A DNA stretch of 28,918 bases, taken from Sphaerochaetaceae bacterium. Its GTDB lineage: Bacteria > Spirochaetota > Spirochaetia > Sphaerochaetales > Sphaerochaetaceae. Below the pieces are notes generated by a model. It was given only the letters and a program-made list of their open reading frames with translations, searched no databases and was not told the DNA's origin. This document shows positions 1 through 28,145 of the stretch, piece by piece. The stretch is taken from the NCBI GenBank assembly GCA_028702575.1, contig JAQVOO010000008.1:1757-30674 (forward strand). Reading direction: 5' to 3'. Made by a program: the position numbers and the translations under genes. Each line of letters starts with the position of its first letter. Position 1 is the first letter of the stretch.

Positions 1-200
1 GAAAAATTGTCTTTTTTGGAAAACGGTATGTGGGATGCTGGAGTACGGGTTAAAAAACTCAAAGGACCGACGGATAAGGTTATTTTTGAAGCCCGTATCA
101 GCAAAGGGGACCGACTCATTTTTACCCTCGGAAGAGATGGGGAACGTACTTGCATCTACCTATGGGGAGCGGTCCACCATGATAATATAAGTTCCACGGC
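1..200 (+). other. RelE/ParE-toxin-like segment at the N-terminus of the large ORF
   Basis: VRVKKLKGPTDKVIFEARISKGDRLIFTLGRDGERTCIYLWGAVHHDNI lines up with the conserved C-terminal core of E. coli RelE and ParE (KKLQG...YRLRVGDYRVIYQI.DGK.IIYVLRVGHRKDIY): KKLxG, then xxxxRI, then GDxR[LV]I[FY], then IY[LV]..G..H. The N-terminal helices of the fold would lie upstream of the window. Confidence 0.5.
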
Positions 201-3200
201 TCGGACAATCTTTCCCGACAATGCTCCGTTTTTGCACTTCGAGACTGCGAGTGAAGAGACTTTTGACGACTTGATGATCGACTCCCTATCTGATGATGTT
301 TTTACCCAGGAATCAATTGAGCAAAAGGTGCTTGAGGATTATGGTCCCCAGAAATGGATGGATATCAGTGAGGAACAACTGAAAAGGTTTTTGGGGAGAA
401 ACAATCCTGATTTCTTCGAGCTCTTTCTCTATCTGACTAGAGAGCAACAGGATGTGCTCAAACTGAAGCCTCCTGTACTACTGTCTGGAACGGCAGGTAG
501 TGGTAAAACCACACTTGCGATCTACTACCTAATGAAGGGGAGTCATACTGGCCAGGAAGTGCTGTTCGTCACCTGTAGCCATTTTCTCAGAGATTATTCC
601 GAAAAGCTATATCGGGGCTTGACTGTCCACTCCCCTTTGGAGAATGAAATCGGGGAAGTTCGGTTTGCTATGCTACGCGAACTGGTCTTGGAGATACTCT
701 CTGCAGCAAAAATCCATCCGGACCTGAAACAGGAGGTGGACCTGAAGGGCTTTATTGAGATATTCAGCCGCCATAGTCTTGCCAAGCAGTATGACCCTGA
801 ACTGGTCTGGGAGGAGATTCGCTCCATCATTAAGGGGGCGAACCCCCCTGTAAGCCTCCGCCATTACCGTACCCTTATCTCACTCTATCTGGACAGTTCC
901 CTCACTACTATCCAACTACGTCAACTAAAAGACGCTCTTCTAGCTCTGAAAGCCTATGGTTTTAGCAGAAAATTCGAAAGGATTATTGAAAAGAAGAGTT
1001 CGTGCATCGACTTCACCGACTTTGTGCAGAAACTCTCTTTACCCAATCAGCAGGCGGACTATACTACCTTCGCCTTCATCCTCGGTGAGATTCTCCGCAT
1101 CCTCGTGATGAAAGAGAACCATCTCAGCTCGCCGTTGTTATCGCTAGAGGAGTATACCAATCTGGGCAAGAAAAGAGCTCCCAATTTCCTCTATGACCGT
1201 CAGGAGATCTACAACATTGCCGAATATTATCAGGGGCAGCTAGAGGCGGAAAAACGCTTTGATGAGATTGATCTTTGTAGACGAGCGATAGTCGCTCTAG
1301 AACAACTTGGCAATCAATTCCAATGGGATCTGGTGGTAGGGGATGAAGTGCAAGATTTTTCAGACATTCAGCTCACCCTTCTTTTCAAGCTTTCCAAAAA
1401 GCCAGGAGAGATTGTGTGTGCCGGAGATCCCAAACAGATAATCAACCCCAGTGGATTTCGCTGGGAAGAACTTAAAAACCGTTTCTACGAGCAAGGGTTG
1501 CCAGTACCGACAGTTCAGCATCTGCATCTGAATTTTCGCTGTGTTGGCAGTGTGGTGCGGCTTTCCAATGCCTTGCTCAAGCTAAAGCAGCAACTGGTAG
1601 GTATCAGTGGACACGAACAGATGGAGGAGTGGAAATTCAATGGACGTCCACCGTACCTCATCCATGGTATCTCTGAGGTAGAGATGAGTCGCGAGGTGGC
1701 AACTACAGCAGCCGGACAGGTGATCCTCGTGCGTAGCGATGGTGAGAAACAACGGTTAATGAAAACCCTCAATACTGAGCTTGTCTTCACCATTAATGAA
1801 GCTAAAGGGTTGGAGTTTGATACCGTACTCCTTTGGAAATTCTCATCCGATGCCAAAGCATCCAGTATCTGGCGCAAGATTCATGCGGAAAACTACCTGG
1901 AAACGAGACACTACCCCTTGATTCGGCACGAGATTAACCTGCTGTATGTGGCCGTGACTCGGGCAAGAAACACCCTAATCATCTACGATGGAGCGCGCAC
2001 CTCCCCTGTGTGGCAGGTAGAAGCTCTTGCTCCTCATATCTTCAACACTCAAGAAAAGGATGCTTTGCAACAGATCTGGAAGCGAATATCAACAGCAAAA
2101 GAGTGGAATGAACAGGGCGATTACTTCTTTGAACGACAGCACTACTCAGTTGCCGCTGAATGCTACCGCAATAGTTTAAACGATGAGATGGGTGATGTGT
2201 GTCAAGCATACATCAAGAGAAGTGAGAAGCTCTATCTTGCCTCGGCTGCACTATTTTTGAGCCGAGGTCGAAAGGCTGAGGCTGCCCATGATTACGAGGA
2301 TGGTGGTGCGTATCATAAGGCGCTACCCCTCTGGAAGGATCTGAAACGTAAAGATCGTATCATCCCGTGCGAGATATCTCTATTGGAAACAGAAGGGAAG
2401 TATGCTGAGGCGGCCGATCTTTGGGTCCAACAAAAACGTTTCGACCGAGCTGTGGAGAATTGGAAGAAAGCAAAGGCGTTCTCAAAACTTGGCTCATATT
2501 ATTTCAAACTGCGCTCGTACAGCCTAGCAGGCGAGAATTTTGTTTCGGCAGGTCAGTTTCTGGAGGCGGCTCTCTGCTACAAACGACTGAAGCAACCTAA
2601 AAAAGCTGCTAATTATTATGTTGCTGGGGGCGACTATGAAAAAGCTCTTCCCCTCTATATCCGCCTGAAGGCTTGGGACGATGTAATTATTTGCTATACC
2701 GCCCTTGATAAACACTATCAGTTAGGTCTCTTATATGAGAAACGAAAAGAATACAAGTTAGCAATCGAGAAGTTTACTCTCTATGCCAATGGCTCAAAGG
2801 AACAGAAAACGCAACTTCTCGATGAAGCTAAAAAAATGGAGACGATTTCCCGATCGATGATTAAAGCGGGGATTCGGTACGCTGCTATGTTGCAACATAG
2901 CAAAGCGGCAGATCTATTTTTCTATAAAAATCAATTCGAACTGGCCGTCGTGGAGTATCTTCAGGTGGGTGATTTACACCATGCCGCCATCTGTTATAAC
3001 GCCCTTGGCAAAACAGAGCATGCCATCAAATTGTATGAGGAGATTGGTGATAAAGATTCGTATATAAAAGTGATTGACCTCCTACGCTCACGCATGAGAA
3101 AGGGGCGGCGCTATGATCAAAACCAGATACAGGCTTGTTATGAAACCGCTGAGTTTCATTACAGGACGAAGGAGTACAGTAAAGCTCTCACCCGTTACCT

Positions 3201-4143
3201 TGCTATAAACGAGACCGACGGAATCCTCAAGTCTGCATTGCTTGTCGCAGGGCGTGATGAGGAAGTGCTCGACTTTTTCATGCAAGAGAAAGAATCTGCC
3301 AGCGGAATTGAGTTTATCACTAAAAAAAAGGACCTAACCATCTCAAAAACCTATGTGGAGCAACTTTGCAAAAGTACTGAGTACCGGGTACCGGGGGTGT
3401 TAACCTATCACGTAGGTGAACAATTACTCCTCGAGTTGCTGGCAAAACTCTCCGCAAAGAAGAAATCGCCCTACGATCTTTCAGAAATCATACGAATATA
3501 CCTAGCCTCCTACGGGATGCTCTACCAAGTGGATCAAGTATCCAAAGCCTTCGTCAACCTAATCATCGATACCCAGTATCTCAACCATATATTCCTCATC
3601 GTCACTGAGAGTGTTCCTCTTGAGAAGTCATTTGTTGACCAGTTCAAAAAACAGATTCTTGCACGTGCGGTTTCGAGTAATGATGCTCTTTTGATGGCAC
3701 TTGCCCAAGAGAGTCTTCCTTCTACCCTAGATCCGCTACTAGAAGACCTGCCCATCGATATACACAACTACCTGCTTTTCAGTCTCTCTCCCAAACGATC
3801 AGTTGAGGCGTTTGATTTTCTCAAGCAGAGCCATGTAGATATCTCAAAGATAGAGGATTTTTGCTTCAAAGCCGAATTGCTTAAAGATCTGGCGCTTTTA
3901 CATGAGCAAGCGGAAAATTACAAGCGAGCAGCTGGAATCTATAAGGAAAATGGGGATCTCTTCGATGCGCTTAGGTGCTACACGAGAATTGAAGACTTTC
4001 TGGGTATAGCTAAAACGTTTGAAGCCATGCATCGGTTTGAGGATGCCCTCGTAGTATATACAAAGTTGGAAAAGTCCGCTGCCATAGCCAGAATGAAGAA
4101 GAAGCTGAATAAGTTACAGTATATTCAAAAGGAACTCTTTTAA
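1..4143 (+). CDS. Large multidomain protein, truncated at its 5' end by the window edge: RelE/ParE-like N-terminal module, UvrD/PcrA-like SF1 helicase core, and a long C-terminal TPR-like repeat region
   Basis: Frame 1 is open from nt 1. The ORF track starts at a TTG at 7 only because the window begins there, and the RelE-like fold would need about 40 more residues upstream. Helicase motifs read in order: Walker A LLSGTAGSGKTTLAIYY (nt ~480-530), motif II VVGDEVQDF (1336-1362), motif III AGDPKQIINP, motif IV NFRCVG, motif V TINEAKGLEFDTVLLW, motif VI YVAVTRARNTLIIY (~1945-1990). The UvrD-like LTREQQDVL lies just before Walker A. Stop TAA is at 4141-4143. Confidence 0.8.
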   Translation, partial: EKLSFLENGMWDAGVRVKKLKGPTDKVIFEARISKGDRLIFTLGRDGERTCIYLWGAVHHDNISSTARTIFPDNAPFLHFETASEETFDDLMIDSLSDDVFTQESIEQKVLEDYGPQKWMDISEEQLKRFLGRNNPDFFELFLYLTREQQDVLKLKPPVLLSGTAGSGKTTLAIYYLMKGSHTGQEVLFVTCSHFLRDYSEKLYRGLTVHSPLENEIGEVRFAMLRELVLEILSAAKIHPDLKQEVDLKGFIEIFSRHSLAKQYDPELVWEEIRSIIKGANPPVSLRHYRTLISLYLDSSLTTIQLRQLKDALLALKAYGFSRKFERIIEKKSSCIDFTDFVQKLSLPNQQADYTTFAFILGEILRILVMKENHLSSPLLSLEEYTNLGKKRAPNFLYDRQEIYNIAEYYQGQLEAEKRFDEIDLCRRAIVALEQLGNQFQWDLVVGDEVQDFSDIQLTLLFKLSKKPGEIVCAGDPKQIINPSGFRWEELKNRFYEQGLPVPTVQHLHLNFRCVGSVVRLSNALLKLKQQLVGISGHEQMEEWKFNGRPPYLIHGISEVEMSREVATTAAGQVILVRSDGEKQRLMKTLNTELVFTINEAKGLEFDTVLLWKFSSDAKASSIWRKIHAENYLETRHYPLIRHEINLLYVAVTRARNTLIIYDGARTSPVWQVEALAPHIFNTQEKDALQQIWKRISTAKEWNEQGDYFFERQHYSVAAECYRNSLNDEMGDVCQAYIKRSEKLYLASAALFLSRGRKAEAAHDYEDGGAYHKALPLWKDLKRKDRIIPCEISLLETEGKYAEAADLWVQQKRFDRAVENWKKAKAFSKLGSYYFKLRSYSLAGENFVSAGQFLEAALCYKRLKQPKKAANYYVAGGDYEKALPLYIRLKAWDDVIICYTALDKHYQLGLLYEKRKEYKLAIEKFTLYANGSKEQKTQLLDEAKKMETISRSMIKAGIRYAAMLQHSKAADLFFYKNQFELAVVEYLQVGDLHHAAICYNALGKTEHAIKLYEEIGDKDSYIKVIDLLRSRMRKGRRYDQNQIQACYETAEFHYRTKEYSKALTRYLAINETDGILKSALLVAGRDEEVLDFFMQEKESASGIEFITKKKDLTISKTYVEQLCKSTEYRVPGVLTYHVGEQLLLELLAKLSAKKKSPYDLSEIIRIYLASYGMLYQVDQVSKAFVNLIIDTQYLNHIFLIVTESVPLEKSFVDQFKKQILARAVSSNDALLMALAQESLPSTLDPLLEDLPIDIHNYLLFSLSPKRSVEAFDFLKQSHVDISKIEDFCFKAELLKDLALLHEQAENYKRAAGIYKENGDLFDALRCYTRIEDFLGIAKTFEAMHRFEDALVVYTKLEKSAAIARMKKKLNKLQYIQKELF
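2100..4140 (+). other. TPR-like alpha-helical repeat region (about 680 aa) at the C-terminus of the helicase protein
   Basis: Recurring units of roughly 34-40 aa with spaced Tyr, Ala and Leu. Examples: GAYHKALPLWKDLKRKDRII, GDYEKALPLYIRLKAWDDVI, NGDLFDALRCYTRIEDFLGI, YAEAADLWVQQKRFDRAVENWKKAKAF, AAECYRNSL, EAALCYKRLKQPKKAANYY, AAICYNALGKTEHAIKLYEE. Confidence 0.6.
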
Positions 4144-4707: not shown

Positions 4708-5883
4708 TTAAAACCATTTTTTTCGCGTCGGCTTTAACAGGATCCCCTTTAGCCTTGCGTTGATGATATCCTTATCAAATTCCTGTGAAAAGTCTTCGCC
4801 AACCCACTCACAGACCCTGTCGTACTCTTCATCTTCGGGATCTTGAAGAACTGTAGCCTTGTATTCATATCCATATGGTCCTCCAGAATCTTCCCAAGGC
4901 GCGTCCCCCTCTCCTCTGGTACAAATGACTTCAGGTTCTCCATCGCGAAGTTCTCGTTTGCCAACATGAATAATATGTTCCCAGTAATCTCCAAAATCAT
5001 AAATGTAGGTAAATTTTTTGGAAGCCTCACCCAGATTACCAAGTGTTAATTCTTCTTCATCCAGCTCCTCTTCTTCATAAAAGGGGGGAAAACTACCCGT
5101 TCCTTCTGGAACAGGCCCAACTTTATACGGTCCTATTCTGAATTGATGCAGGTGCATATCATCCCAGCTAAAGGCTATCTGAATGATTCTATGGAGTTTT
5201 TCAAACGAGGTAAAGATGGGGACTTCAAAGCTTCTGAAGACTTTAAACTGTGGAGTTAAACGCAAAACAATTTTTAAATTCACCACTACGTGCATCTCTT
5301 TGAGTATTTCTTTGCTATTTGTTGCCAGCACTTCCTTCATCGCCTCAACAGGAACGATACGTTTATCATTGATTTTTACTTTACTATTGGAAAAGGTAGA
5401 AGCAAGTTCAGGTAGAGGTAATTCAGAATCAAGAATTTTCTTTAGCCAACGATTGAGTCGGCTCAAGATAGATTTATCAGATCCAGAAACAACGCGTACG
5501 TCGGCTCCCTCTTTTAGATAGGCTTCTATTTGGTTGGGATCATATTTTTGTAAAACAAACGCATCTCGTATAGCTGCTGTCACTTCATCACCATCAAAGT
5601 GCCAAGGATCGAACTCAAACTTTGTAATAACACAGAACCCAGTTGCCTTATTGGTAAGCACCATACAGGTATCATAATTTTCATCTATGAAGGAGGTGCC
5701 AACCCAACAAAAATGAGGTGCATACAAAGCAGTCGGATCTTGTGAACCTGATCCGATATAACGAAACAAAGCCCGCGAGCATTCAATAAGCATAATCCCT
5801 CCTCCTAATAAAATTAAAGATGATAAAACACAAGCATACACGAGCCAGAATGTTTTTCCAATATTTTTTTCAATTTTGGACAA
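4708..5883 (-). CDS. Membrane-anchored hypothetical protein with a C-terminal plasmid pRiA4b ORF-3-like domain
   Basis: N-terminal hydrophobic segment FWLVYACVLSSLILLGGGIMLI. The C-terminal half carries the family-typical motifs HQFRIG, FTYIYDFGDYWEHIIHV and PWEDSGGPYGYE, plus an acidic EEEELDEEEL stretch. It converges on the helicase ORF. Confidence 0.6.
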   Translation of the reverse strand: MSKIEKNIGKTFWLVYACVLSSLILLGGGIMLIECSRALFRYIGSGSQDPTALYAPHFCWVGTSFIDENYDTCMVLTNKATGFCVITKFEFDPWHFDGDEVTAAIRDAFVLQKYDPNQIEAYLKEGADVRVVSGSDKSILSRLNRWLKKILDSELPLPELASTFSNSKVKINDKRIVPVEAMKEVLATNSKEILKEMHVVVNLKIVLRLTPQFKVFRSFEVPIFTSFEKLHRIIQIAFSWDDMHLHQFRIGPYKVGPVPEGTGSFPPFYEEEELDEEELTLGNLGEASKKFTYIYDFGDYWEHIIHVGKRELRDGEPEVICTRGEGDAPWEDSGGPYGYEYKATVLQDPEDEEYDRVCEWVGEDFSQEFDKDIINARLKGILLKPTRKKWF

Positions 5884-9285: not shown

Positions 9286-11969
9286 ATGAATCGATTTATT
9301 TGGAATATTACTAAACGATTACTCGCGATAGTGCCAATAGTAGTCCTTTTTTTATTCATGTATAAACAATTAGTCGTACTTGAACGAAACAATGTCCGTG
9401 AAAAAGTTATTTCGGAACATACAGGACACCTCCAACTCATGGACTTTTTTGTCACTGAAAATTTTGCAGAATATTATTCAATGCTACACCTCATCCGTAA
9501 TTCAAACAGTGTTGCTAACTTTTTAGCCGACCCTTCTGATGAAAATAGGGAGGGGATGAAAGCGTTTTTTAAAAGGATGGCCCAAAACCGCCCTTATATT
9601 AATGGTCTGTTACTAGGTACCACTGAAGGAGAACCTTTAGTTGGGTTAACTTCATTTGATGGTAGCATGGAATATGTAGGGTTGATGGTCCCATTTGAAC
9701 CAATTTGGGATCTTCTGGTCTCTAAGGTAAAAATTTAGAAGAAGATGGTTTTTATTTTTCTCCTCTGAATTATGTTATTCCCCTAGCAGGGGAAGAACCT
9801 CTACATCCTGTAATTGGAACTTCTATTCCAATTTATTGTGATGGAGAACAAGTTGGCATTCTTGGAATGTTGGTCAATGGGAACCATATTCTGGCCAAAA
9901 TTACGCAATTTATACAAGAACACCCGAACGAAATAAAGTTTAGTCTGGTCGATAATTACGGCAACCGGATCCTCAGAGATACCGTAGAAGGTATAACCCC
10001 ATATAATCCACTAATTCCCAATTTGTCTCAAAGTAAGCCCTTATTATGGGAAAAAGTTGTCAAAGAAGGGAAGGGTTTGACCGTAATTGATGGTTATAAT
10101 TATTACTTTCATGCTTTTAATCCCTTCAAAGAGCAAAACCCCTTCTATGAGGCACAGCCACATTTTCTGGCCGGTATTGTCTTCTTTGCTGACCAAGATA
10201 CCTCCATTTTAAGTGACTCCTTTTTACTGCGCCATAAATCTCTACGTTGGGTACTTGCTCTATTTATTTTTGTGGTGGGTGGATTTTTAAACATTTTATC
10301 CTATTTTAGACGTAATGACCGAGAATTACTGGCAGTGAGCAATCTAATTTCTGACCAATCACATGATGGTGTTGTTATTAGCGATGCCCTTGGGCATGTA
10401 ACCTATTGTAATCACACATTTCAGTCGATGACTGGTTTTTCCGAAAAAGAAATTAGCGAAGGCCGTCATCGTGTTGTTGATTTGTCAGGAGTAACTTTTA
10501 ATTCGGTCAAGGCCATAACATCTTCAAAACAACGAGATGCTAGAAATAATGCCTGGCAGGGTTTCCTATGGTTAGAGGGGAAGCACCACCTTGCGTTAAC
10601 TCATCTTAGGATCAATTCTATTGTTGATAGGCTGGACCGTATTCTGTATCAGGTTGGTCTTTATTCGAATCCTAGGAACCTTTCACGTGAATCATTTGGC
10701 AAAATGATTATTGCCAACGAAGGCGATGCTATCGCTATTGATCAGTATCCTCTACAGCTTTTAGCGCAAAAATGCGAGGAACCAGTAGATAATCCTTTTG
10801 TGGTGATTTATCTAAAATTGGTTAATATTGATATAATAGAAGCCCAATATACTTTAGATGAACATTATCTATTAGGGGCTCAAATCCGAGAACGAATAGC
10901 CAATGCTCTGAAGAATGATGACCTCATTATCCAATTATCGCCGGATACATTTTTACTGACCGCCTCTACTGACAAATTTTCAGAACGTAAAGGCCTAGGT
11001 CACATCGAAAAAGCTTTTGAGATGCCGGTAAAATTACGAGATCAATTACAAATTATCCGTATTCAGTGTGGGATTTCATCCTCTTCAGCCGATTGTTCTA
11101 ATGTTTCATTGTTGTTGCGGCAGGCTAGAATGGCCTTAGCCGCACAGGACCATTTTGGGCATAGTGGTAGCCTCTTCTACGATGAGACAGTAAATGAGTA
11201 TTTAGTCCGCTACTATGAAATTCTCGAATCTTTCCCAACGGCATTAGAAAAAGGTGAAATTACAGTCTATTTTCAACCAATTGTTGCTACCCAGACCAAT
11301 ACCATAATTGGCGCGGAAGCTCTAGCACGATGGGAACATCCCAAACTAGGTGCTATTCCTCCAAATGAATTTATTCCCATTATAGAACAAAATAATCTGG
11401 AGCGACTATTAGGAAGGTTTGTGGTGGAGCACGCAGTTCTGCTTTTACACGAACTTTCAACTATAAAAGAAAATCAACTGGTAGTATCGATGAATCTTAG
11501 CCCGACTGAATTAGAGGATCCCGATTTGGTACCTCATATGGTGCGCACATTAGATGCCTATAATGTTTCGCACGAATTGTTGATAATTGAACTAACCGAA
11601 CACTCCTTATTGACAGATATCGAAATTGCCAAGAAACAGCTGATAGAGCTCCACCAAGAACATGTCAGTTTTGCAATCGATGATTTTGGTACTGGATTCT
11701 CGTCGTTAAGTTATTTACACGAACTAAATTTTGATATACTAAAAATAGATCGCTCTTTCATCAAAGATTATCCTGAAAATGACGAAGGAGTCATCCTTAA
11801 AGCTATGATTAGGATGGTAAAAGAACTCGGTATTGCAGTTGTTATGGAAGGAGTCGAACTTCCTGAACAGCTGGCTCTACTAAAAGAGTTGAAGGTGCCC
11901 TATTACCAAGGGTTTATCTTTTCTAAAGCAGTTCCCAAAGATCAATTCTTAGAAATGTTGCAAGGTTAA
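9286..11969 (+). pseudogene. Frameshifted (or homopolymer mis-sequenced) sensor phosphodiesterase: TM, Cache-like periplasmic domain, TM, PAS, degenerate GGDEF, EAL
   Basis: ORF 9286-9738 (TM plus the first half of a Cache-like domain) stops at TAG 9736. Frame 0 opens at 9726 and continues the same domain (GFYFSPLNYVIPLAGEEPLHPVIGTSIPIYCDGEQVGILG) well before the ATG at 9867 chosen by the ORF track. Adding one A to the A5 run at 9729-9733 gives ...LLVSKVKNLEEDGFYFS..., fusing the two ORFs. Downstream: a second TM (WVLALFIFVVGGFL), a PAS domain (VVISDALGHVTYCNHTFQSMTGFSEKEI), and an EAL domain with EALARWEHP, ELTEHS, DDFGTGFSSLSYL, KIDRSFI, EGVE and QGFIFSKAVP. Confidence 0.65.
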
Positions 11970-12201: not shown

Positions 12202-13421
12202 TTATTGATGTCTAAGACAAGCAGGAATATCCACCTTTAAGGCCCGTCTAATGGGTAGATAAGCGACGATTATTGCAAGGGTAATACCTGAGACAAAGGT
12301 TATGATAAATGACCTAAGATTCCAGGATCCCCGTACAATGCTCTGAATCCGATAGCCAATATCCGTATCGCGCATGATAAAGCCAAAATCAAGGCCTGTG
12401 TTGACCATATAGAGATTGCCTAGAGCACCCAAGGCGAGGCCGATAAGGGCTCCAACCATTCCAATGCCTCCTGCTTCAAACAAGAAAGAGAGCATGATAT
12501 GGCCCTCTTTCATCCCTAGGGCTCTCATCATCCCCAACTCCCGGGTTCGTTCATACATAGACATAAGCATCGTATTGGAGACCCCCACCGCTGCTATGAG
12601 AAAGACCAAAAAGAGGATGATTGCGGTTCCCCCTCTTTCAGCTTCCATCGCTGCAAGGTAGTCCTTAGCAAGGACTCTCCAGCTTCTTGCCTCCAGTTCC
12701 TGCCCAGATGCAGGTAAGAGTTGTTGTAATCTTTGTACTGCTTTATCCACATCGCTATGTAATGGCAGGCGAATATCTATTTCTGTAACTGATCCCTCCA
12801 TGCCCAAAAGAGAGTCTGCACTAGTCTTGTTCATCATCAAGAGTGTCCGATTCACATTGGGATTCGGGCAGTTGACGATTCCTACTATCTCTAGGTCTGT
12901 TGCCCCAAAGAAGCCCCCTTTGCCCCGATGTCCTGGGCAAACCAGGAACCCATGAGGACCCCTTCCTCATCATCGGCGGTGAGAAACCTCCCATCAATGA
13001 GGGTATCCTCAAAATGGAAGACGTCATGGTCAGTCTCTGGATCAATTGCTGTTATTAGGACACCCATGTTCCCATCTTCACCAAAATCATCGCTGTAGAG
13101 GATCATATCACCGGTGAACATGGTTCGCTCTGTTGCCGTCCAACCTGCACCCCTGATAATCTGTAGAACTTTTTGAGGTTGCTCTATCCCCTGTTCCAGA
13201 GGATAGAGTTGACGATCTGGCCAGTATTCCTTGGTATGAATCCTTACCGAGGATGTCTCGTACCAGAGCAGATTGCGGATCGATTCCTCTTCCATTCCCA
13301 ACAGCAGGGAATCAACAATGAGGAACATCGCAAGTCCTAGAGCAATTGCAATGGCTGTGATGAAAGTGCGCCTCTTGTAGCGAAAGAGATTTTTCATAGC
13401 CAGAAGGAAGGCAAACTTCAC
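12202..13421 (-). pseudogene. Disrupted paralogue of the FtsX-type ABC permease at 16524-17783
   Basis: ORFs 12891-13421 and 12202-12855 together align over the full length of the intact 419-aa permease (MKFAFLLAMKNLFRYKRRT... vs [19 protein letters not shown]...; shared ...CPNPNVNRTL...DIPACLRHQ C-termini). The frames break between DIGAK and RGKGGFF. In the intact copy these are separated by IGYWVTLLT. Nucleotide comparison suggests about 37 nt missing, which is not a multiple of 3. Confidence 0.7.
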
Positions 13422-27851: not shown

Positions 27852-28145
27852 TTAAAGTGGATTGGCGTTTTCTAATTCGATTAGTGCAATGAATTCAGAG
27901 ACCGACATGCCGAGCGCATCGCTTAATCGTTTTAACGTAGTAAGGGTTGGGCTATGTTCCCCTTTAAGAATTTTATATAATTGCGAGCGTGTCATTCCTG
28001 TATCACGAGCATATTGGGCGATAGGACAATTTCTCGATCTCAAGACGTTCAGCAAAGCTTGTTCAATATGCATGCCAATAGTATACCACAAGAAAAGTGT
28101 AATAAAAAACAAAATAAATGCCGTAATAGAGAGGTAAACAAGCAA
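27852..28145 (-). CDS. XRE-family helix-turn-helix transcriptional regulator
   Basis: C-terminal 70 aa is a typical HTH_XRE domain (CPIAQYARDTGMTRSQLYKILKGEHSPTLTTLKRLSDALGMSVSEFIALIE). As drawn by the ORF track it has a 24-aa hydrophobic N-terminal leader. An alternative start at ATG 28073 gives a 74-aa soluble protein. Confidence 0.65.
   Translation of the reverse strand: MLVYLSITAFILFFITLFLWYTIGMHIEQALLNVLRSRNCPIAQYARDTGMTRSQLYKILKGEHSPTLTTLKRLSDALGMSVSEFIALIELENANPL

Follow-up and report, generated by a model that had tools for sequence, protein, structure and literature searches.

A RelE-toxin-like domain, a UvrD-type helicase motor and a long helical-repeat arm combined in one protein of a Sphaerochaetaceae bacterium

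Introduction

Cami1 (CARF-RelE), which serves type III CRISPR systems as an ancillary effector and depends on a CRISPR locus, has a RelE domain joined to a CARF sensor that binds cyclic oligoadenylate, and in RelBE, YefM-YoeB and HigBA the toxins are proteins of ~90 amino acids (aa) that are accompanied by an antitoxin gene. Here we analyze a gene at the left end of a 28,918-nucleotide (nt) stretch of DNA from a Sphaerochaetaceae bacterium (assembly GCA_028702575.1, contig JAQVOO010000008.1, positions 1,757 to 30,674; this whole stretch is hereafter the window), and which encodes a real protein with a domain resembling RelE toxins, followed by a complete UvrD-type motor and then by a long arm of helical repeats. 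The protein resembles Cami1 in having a RelE-like domain fused to a putative sensor in a single chain, but it has no CARF match and no association with CRISPR, and its regulatory part is a helicase plus a helical solenoid. It shares a basic surface with the RelBE, YefM-YoeB and HigBA toxins, but here the toxin-like module is one domain of a 1410-aa protein that has no antitoxin gene.

The order of a RelE-like domain followed by a superfamily 1 (SF1) helicase is itself known. In the CoCoNuT systems of types II and III-A, a RelE/colicin-D-fold domain lies directly N-terminal to the SF1 helicase of CnuH, a member of the UPF1-like clade whose gene lies in conserved operons together with those for a McrB-like GTPase (CnuB) and a McrC-like nuclease (CnuC) (Bell et al., eLife 2024, PMC11090510). 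This 'RNase toxin-like' domain of CnuH was detected only by structure, its sequence being unlike those of known RelE toxins, and whether it is active is uncertain (PMC11090510). The protein described here is like CnuH in that its single chain has a RelE-fold domain ahead of an SF1 helicase and in that this domain is detected by structure only. It differs in that its helicase is UvrD-type (PF00580) and not UPF1-like, in its C-terminal solenoid of ~690 aa, and in having no recurrent neighbors across 78 loci and no McrBC-type families among the neighbors it has.

We found no described RelE-UvrD-TPR fusion in the literature. A survey of mono- and multidomain RelE/ParE toxins (Gerdes 2025) started from 13 Pfam families; a helicase, UvrD or TPR fusion is not mentioned in its text, and a term search of three supplementary files, one of them truncated, gave no helicase/UvrD entry and no TPR fusion. 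This is expected, because the N-terminal domain studied here matches none of the survey's 13 Pfam models. The initial annotation of the window, made by a model from the sequence, could not place the architecture in a described family, and this holds for the three-part combination but not for its elements, since a RelE-like domain before an SF1 helicase (CnuH) and a RelE-sensor fusion (Cami1) are both known. The architecture is in no described family that we found, and the family is uncharacterized but well defined, not categorically new.

The gene and its domains

Forward frame 1 is open from the first base of the window to a TAA at 4141-4143, and the other two forward frames contain dozens of stops, in agreement with the frame of at least 1378 aa that had been annotated as entering from the left edge. 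The translation is identical to P0001 (MDY0371238.1), a 1410-aa protein from a Sphaerochaetaceae metagenome-assembled genome (MAG), whose contig (L001) is 99.7% identical to the window. On that contig the true start could be recovered, an ATG that precedes the window edge by 90 nt; as this is 30 codons, the window holds residues 31-1410 and is without the first 30. A TTG start listed for an open reading frame (ORF) at 7..4143 was rejected as an edge artifact, the real ATG lying upstream of the window. Inside the ORF, the window and L001 differ at nine nucleotides, every one of them a third codon position and every one synonymous, which together with at least 120 full-length homologs shows this to be a real gene subject to purifying selection. 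In a Sphaerochaeta MAG, an 84%-identical ortholog (L012:9992-14229, on a 344-kb contig) is broken into an 823-aa ORF and a second ORF; it is either a pseudogene or the product of a long-read frameshift.

The identity of the N-terminal domain (residues 1-100) comes from structure prediction. A model of residues 1-111 built from a 50-sequence alignment (predicted local distance difference test (pLDDT) 81.7) has a strand, two helices, four strands and a helix in this order, and in a Foldseek search with this model the top 22 matches were all RelE, YoeB, YafQ or HP0892/HP0894 toxins (best E-value (E) 2.3e-4; TM-score 0.69-0.78 on the target), with HigB and ParE among the later ones. The fold matches also included Cami1, a defense effector with RelE fused to a sensor. 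On the strength of this model we regard the RelE fold of the domain as confirmed, with the support coming from the fold and not from a profile. Of the RelE/ParE toxin core proposed in the initial annotation, the fold has stood and the profile similarity has not: the anticipated Pfam matches to ParE_toxin or YoeB/RelE models did not appear (see Discussion), nor did the segment turn out to be a common accessory domain of helicases. The best match of the family profile among Protein Data Bank (PDB) sequences, the McrB/LlaJI N-terminal domain at E 0.12, was taken to be a chance match, since the fold searches point to RelE alone. The Joint Genome Institute (JGI) automatic annotation of the same protein is 'mRNA-degrading endonuclease RelE'.

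With ~56% identity to distant homologs and a mean column identity of 64%, the RelE-like domain is conserved about as strongly as the helicase core and much more strongly than the C-terminal repeats. Residues K48, K49, E60, R62, R68, Y83, W85 and H90 are invariant across phyla, and the i/i+2 alternation in the modeled strands would place the invariant residues on the exposed face of the sheet and where strand and helix meet. These are the places of the active sites in the RelE family, and the active site of YoeB is composed of Glu, Arg and His. It is plausible that the modeled domain has a candidate active site of this YoeB-like Glu/Arg/His kind. An hhalign alignment to Escherichia coli RelE, which at 0.5% probability served only as a tentative residue map, puts R62 on R56 and the strand-4 residue R68 on the catalytic R61, a further likeness, within this weak alignment, to the toxins of the two-gene modules.

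A profile of the N-terminal domain searched against 1.84 billion cluster representatives retrieved only 200 proteins. In the long ones (800-1900 aa) the domain lies at or near the N-terminus, and the short ones inspected are fragments running into the same linker; no standalone relatives of the domain were found in this search, only the N-termini of long helicase proteins and fragments thereof. In six of six divergent members tested, the domain is followed by a UvrD-helicase domain. These results suggest that the RelE-like domain and the UvrD-type helicase are an obligate evolutionary pair to which a variable repeat arm is attached. One member, P0264 (1860 aa), has a nucleic-acid-binding OB fold (PF01336) ahead of its RelE-like domain (residues 23-92 and 265-370, respectively), and so shows the OB, RelE-like, SF1 helicase order seen in CnuH.

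The full UvrD/PcrA-like SF1 helicase of the initial annotation was borne out. Residues 148-481 match UvrD-helicase (PF00580) with 47.4 bits against a cut-off of 23, and UvrD_C (PF13361; 34.4 bits, cut-off 25.6) and UvrD_C_2 (PF13538; 32.7 bits, cut-off 27.4) also score above their thresholds; alignments of 45 and 57 homologs show the whole set of motifs (Q, I, II, III, IV, V and VI) in the right order, each of them invariant. The protein is not an ortholog of PcrA/UvrD (TIGR01073, 36.8 bits against a cut-off of 911) or of helicase IV (NF008276, 20.6 bits against 543). Searches of the whole protein against Pfam, NCBIfam and PADLOC yielded only generic UvrD or GajB-type helicase matches, and the best PADLOC matches, which were to GajB models (E 6.7e-13) and a DRT helicase, cover the helicase motifs only. 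Membership in Gabija, a DRT system or a named equivalog was rejected because the PADLOC and NCBIfam matches are those of a generic helicase. The UvrD-type SF1 core is shared with GajB, DRT-associated helicases and HelD, but unlike Gabija and DRT systems there is no GajA or reverse-transcriptase partner, GajA not being among the neighbor matches listed.

In an AlphaFold (AF2) model of residues 1-1200 (mean pLDDT 84.7, predicted TM-score (pTM) 0.63), the second RecA domain (2A) is compact (~215 aa) and would leave no room for a 2B domain of UvrD size. Structures of HelD, AddA, Rep, UvrD and PcrA matched this model with E between 6e-11 and 1e-8 and low TM-scores of 0.2-0.37. HelD-RNA polymerase complexes were the best matches (E 5.9e-11 to 2.2e-10), and Upf1 and Ighmbp2 were weaker matches than HelD, Rep and UvrD.

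The C-terminal arm is a helical-repeat solenoid of unusual regularity. In the model, helix accounts for 76% of residues 725-1200, and over long stretches a new helix starts every 13 residues (the modal spacing), each unit consisting of a 10-residue helix and a 3-residue turn so that a hairpin spans 26 residues, and the units follow the pattern x-x-x-[YFW]-x-x-[AL]-[AG]-x-x-[YWF]-x-x, which makes every helix resemble helix A of a TPR. Foldseek matched the arm to the solenoids of IFT-A, Ctr9 and APC. A canonical 34-residue TPR was not found: TPR_2 reached 21.7 bits against a cut-off of 27, other TPR models scored lower, and matches to Pfam TPR, Clathrin, SNAP and IFT-type TPR models were below threshold both here and in homologs, as was the match of this protein to TPR_GEMI5. 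Thus, the ~680 aa of TPR-like repeats initially annotated do exist as a solenoid of ~686 aa, but with a period of 13/26 instead of 34 and with all of the expected TPR-model matches below their cut-offs. The region is TPR-like, not canonical TPR, and its repeats may represent a class of their own that falls under the thresholds of existing TPR models. Identity to distant homologs is 15-37% in the solenoid versus 55-70% in the N-terminal half of the protein.

Between the RelE-like domain and the helicase lie a P-x-N-A-P-F-L-x-F motif, modeled with pLDDT <50, and a strongly acidic linker. Among 45 homologs, the mean net charge of the linker is -10.5 (range -13 to -7) and that of the RelE-like domain is +8. 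The motif and the acidic linker could be an antitoxin-like built-in mask or a docking motif.

Family distribution and relatives

Species-representative genomes, one per species, were scanned with motif III (G505DxxQxxNPxGFRWE519) as the search pattern, and 135 relatives were found among 185,579 species. Most of these are in Spirochaetota; the others come from Marinimicrobia, Desulfobacterota, Acidobacteriota, Ignavibacteriota, Calditrichota, KSB1 and Bacteroidota, and the family also occurs in Clostridia MAGs. The full-length homologs (at least 120) are 1388-1521 aa long, most of them ~1405-1470 aa, and 37-81% identical. The three-part architecture is constant in more than 100 full-length homologs from at least eight phyla, and the N-terminal motif is present in all 81 recovered genes that include the start. 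The patchy distribution is of the kind expected from horizontal gene transfer (HGT), and the family is horizontally scattered.

Two Spirochaetia genomes carry two paralogs each, L046 and L063 (OZ244929.1, ~22 kb apart) in one and L038 and L080 (CBDBOG010000004.1) in the other. In both pairs, the solenoids are 59-62% identical versus 76-86% for the RelE-like and helicase parts, a divergence of the C-terminal repeats about twice that of the rest.

Distant relatives with the same RelE-like N-terminus and helicase are carried by plasmids. Plasmid pCRI9333.06 of Crinalium encodes a 1095-aa relative beside parA, DUF262/DUF3696 and integrases, and a Paraclostridium plasmid encodes a 1049-aa relative, labeled 'TPR protein', that likewise adjoins parA. 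A 970-aa relative in which a RelE-like N-terminus and a UvrD helicase are combined with C-terminal ankyrin repeats occurs on Shigella and Escherichia plasmids (101 Shigella and 13 Escherichia). It is carried by the virulence plasmid of Shigella (pINV) and enteroinvasive E. coli (EIEC), where it sits between the shf-capU-virK-lpxM cluster and ospG; an annotated example is WP_011114777.1 (L088:4167-7079) on the Shigella flexneri IncFIA plasmid NZ_CP020343.1, which carries virK and ospG. We found no literature on this 970-aa relative.

Genomic neighborhood

All ORFs within 6 kb of the gene were clustered across the 78 non-redundant loci, and no conserved neighbor emerged: no family was present in more than six of the 78 loci, and the most recurrent were components of ABC transporters. 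From this we conclude that the gene has neither an antitoxin gene nor a partner gene. A co-transcribed partner and a conserved gene neighborhood, both of which the initial annotation had suggested looking for, are therefore not features of the family, and neither is housekeeping synteny. Upstream gaps and genes vary in every locus inspected, and synteny differs even between Sphaerochaeta species.

About one tenth of the 124 immediate neighbors match PADLOC defense models, namely PDC-S01 (five times), patatin-type phospholipase effector models, DrmD/SNF2, Cas8g, ZorD, DpdE, DolB and PsyrT; only one of the 124 is a Cas protein. Some loci adjoin an integrase and others barnase/barstar and a transposase. 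In a Desulfobacterota locus (L005:14558-15486), a pair of barnase-type ribonuclease and barstar and a DDE transposase lie within ~350 bp downstream, after one 92-aa ORF.

In the window itself, the convergent pRiA4b ORF-3-like gene is as had been annotated (Table 1), with PRiA4_ORF3 and DUF6933 domains, and such a gene is absent from all of the other 77 loci. The accessory character attributed to the region fared less well, this neighbor not being conserved and the remainder of the window coding for cyclic di-GMP (c-di-GMP) enzymes, MacB-type transporters, Trk potassium uptake, an ABC-F protein and a PLD-type enzyme. Scans of the window for Rfam families, tRNAs and terminators found nothing.

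Two further genes are split in the window and intact on L001. The sensor gene with PAS, GGDEF-like and EAL parts is interrupted by an indel near 9729 and is either a frameshift pseudogene or an assembly error, and the permease gene is interrupted by an indel of ~26 nt near 12917-12927. Near the right end of the window, a small Xre-type helix-turn-helix (HTH) protein has a weak match (E 3e-6) to dnstrm_HI1420, a model for an 'addiction module antidote', and the adjacent ORFs include no toxin-like partner.

Table 1 Features of the window, with positions in nucleotides from its first base
Feature	Position	Strand	Basis or detail
Coding sequence, residues 31-1410 of a 1410-aa protein, including TAA 4141-4143	1..4143	+	Open frame; identical protein P0001; synonymous-only differences
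RelE/YoeB/HigB-fold domain (predicted), in-window part, residues 31-100: end of helix 2, four beta strands, C-terminal helix	1..210	+	
Invariant linker motif P-x-N-A-P-F-L-x-F, residues 102-110	214..240	+	P102, N104, F107 and L108 invariant in 57 homologs
Strongly acidic linker, residues 111-147, net charge -11	241..351	+	Charge conserved in 45 homologs
UvrD/Rep/PcrA-type SF1 helicase core, residues ~150-715	358..2055	+	PF00580 (E 2.7e-12), PF13361, PF13538; structural matches
Q motif, LTREQ	433..447	+	Q179 invariant; family form LTxEQ179
Motif I (Walker A), GTAGSGKT	487..510	+	G193-T200 invariant
All-helical insertion of ~210 aa in RecA domain 1A (1B-like), residues 255-466	673..1308	+	Secondary structure of AF2 model
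Motif II (Walker B), VVGDEVQD	1333..1356	+	D478, E479, Q481 and D482 invariant (D478ExQD482)
Motif III, GDPKQIINPSGFRWEE	1423..1470	+	G505, D506, Q509, N512, P513, G515, F516, R517, W518 and E519 invariant
Motif IV, LHLNFRCVG	1522..1548	+	N541, F542 and R543 invariant
Motif V, TELVFTINEAKGLEFD	1774..1821	+	T627 and A631-F636 invariant (T627xxxAKGLEF636)
Motif VI, LLYVAVTRARNTL	1939..1977	+	Y679, V680, T683, R684 and R686 invariant (Y679VxxTRxR686)
C-terminal alpha-solenoid, residues 725-1410 (~686 aa)	2083..4140	+	13-residue helix-turn units; least conserved part of the protein
Convergent neighbor, PRiA4_ORF3 and DUF6933	4708-5883	-	PRiA4_ORF3 E 1.4e-43
Sensor/PAS/GGDEF-like/EAL gene	9286-11969	+	One 870-aa ORF on L001; split into 150 + 700 aa in the window
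MacB_PCD/FtsX permease	12202-13421	-	418 aa on L001; split into 176 + 217 aa in the window
Small Xre-type HTH protein	27852-28145	-	dnstrm_HI1420

Discussion

We propose, at about an even chance of being right, that the protein is a standalone, horizontally scattered conflict protein of sensor-motor-effector type, directed most likely against phages or other mobile elements. The solenoid would serve as the specificity or sensor arm that binds a foreign protein or keeps the whole molecule switched off, a role suggested by its being the fastest-evolving part and by its divergence after duplication. The helicase core would read or track nucleic acid, and binding or ATP hydrolysis would bring about a conformational change that unmasks the RelE-like domain. 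As there is no antitoxin gene, the restraint on this domain would have to act in cis, with the conserved acidic linker as a possible candidate. On release, the domain would cleave mRNA, probably on the ribosome in the manner of RelE, YoeB, HigB and Cami1, and translation would stop, arresting the infected cell or the invader. The same layout is found in Avs/STAND NLR-like proteins, which have an N-terminal effector, a central P-loop NTPase and C-terminal TPR-like repeats in one chain and are likewise encoded by standalone, patchily distributed genes. The difference lies in the NTPase, which in the present family belongs to the SF1 helicases and carries motifs Q and I-VI; the STAND-type models nSTAND3, NACHT, NB-ARC and AAA_16 scored 11-17 bits on the P-loop only, against cut-offs of 23-33.

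Several lines of evidence speak for this proposal: the RelE fold with its Cami1 match, the invariant polar residues of the domain and the invariance of all helicase motifs; the lack of an antitoxin or partner gene, the patchy, HGT-like spread, the links to mobile elements and defense genes and the plasmid relatives; and the divergence of the solenoids in paralogs, the +8/-10.5 charge pattern and the obligate pairing of the N-terminal domain with the helicase. Other observations weigh against it. No Pfam family matched residues 1-183 at E<=0.1, the family profile found no RelE or other toxin among PDB sequences at E<=10, and hhalign comparisons with E. coli YoeB and RelE were not significant. 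In the weak residue map, the catalytic K52 and K54 of E. coli RelE are not kept and correspond to I58 and E60; given these replacements and the missing linking profile, the RNase activity of the domain is putative and unproven. With near-constant length and ~40% identity across phyla, the family is unusually well conserved for an immune sensor, no homolog was found in phages (tblastn, 50,697 records), most of the 124 immediate neighbors are metabolic or transport genes, and the genes in the rest of the window are ordinary chromosomal ones. Switching by oligomerization, as in STAND NTPases, is not known for SF1 helicases, and we infer the defense role from architecture and distribution only.

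Some of these observations would also fit a cellular role. The protein might be a non-immune factor in the surveillance of RNA or of transcription and translation, a bacterial analog of Upf1-type quality control, in which a UvrD/HelD-like motor acts on stalled RNA polymerase or mRNA and the RelE-like domain enters the A site of a stalled or trailing ribosome to cut the message. The HelD-RNA polymerase complexes that lead the structural matches ahead of Rep and UvrD, the high conservation of sequence and length, the predominance of housekeeping genes among the neighbors and the OB fold of P0264, which echoes the OB-RelE-like-helicase order of the RNA-targeting CnuH, all point this way. We nevertheless consider such a role unlikely, because HelD is only marginally ahead of other SF1A helicases at the low TM-scores given above and a surveillance factor would not be expected in just 135 of 185,579 species representatives, without synteny, on plasmids, and as paralogs with diverged solenoids in some genomes. 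The absence of a RelE/ParE profile match and the non-basic residues at the positions of K52 and K54 could also mean that the RelE-fold domain is catalytically dead and binds nucleic acid, the ribosome or a protein, the whole being a DNA helicase or translocase with a scaffold arm for repair, recombination or maintenance of mobile elements. The UvrD family consists of DNA motors, and plasmid relatives adjoin parA partition genes. This reading seems improbable to us in view of the conservation of the N-terminal domain, which is among the best-conserved parts of the protein, the mostly charged or aromatic nature of its invariant residues and their judged location at the RelE-family active-site position; sequence divergence, moreover, is usual in active RelE-family toxins (PMC11090510).

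The plasmid relatives are open to one further interpretation, that of a selfish, single-gene addiction or stabilization module in which a fused toxin and antitoxin promote retention of the carrier DNA. The RelE/ParE fold has a heritage in plasmid stabilization, relatives sit on small plasmids with parA adjoining, a conserved acidic segment comes after the basic toxin-like domain, and fused toxin-antitoxin single genes exist (Gerdes 2025). Post-segregational killing, however, depends on a stable toxin and a labile antitoxin as separate molecules, and there is no sign of processing here; ~1300 conserved residues of helicase and solenoid far exceed the needs of an antitoxin, and most copies are chromosomal, outside recognizable mobile elements. 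We regard this interpretation as very improbable.

Returning to the conflict protein that we favor, the sequence of its N-terminal domain constitutes a new family that is invisible to current RelE/ParE profile models. More than 100 full-length members in at least eight phyla make the protein family a well-defined one, and it is ready for experiment: the RelE-like domain offers E60, R62, R68 and H90 as invariant candidate catalytic residues, the ATPase offers K199 and D478/E479, and, there being no partner genes, a single cloned ORF would suffice. The relative on the Shigella/EIEC plasmid offers a route to a tractable host and is of possible relevance to plasmid biology in a pathogen. Going further, and with some doubt, we suggest that the family and its plasmid relatives with ankyrin or TPR arms might form an unrecognized class of single-chain immune receptors, in which an SF1 motor couples a repeat sensor to a cis-inhibited, ribosome-dependent RelE-type RNase and the acidic linker acts as a built-in antitoxin. 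If the proposed mechanism is right, the family would give RelE-fold RNases a third setting beside two-gene toxin-antitoxin modules and CARF-RelE, and it would mean that the NLR-like logic of effector, NTPase and repeats can rest on a helicase motor instead of a STAND NTPase.

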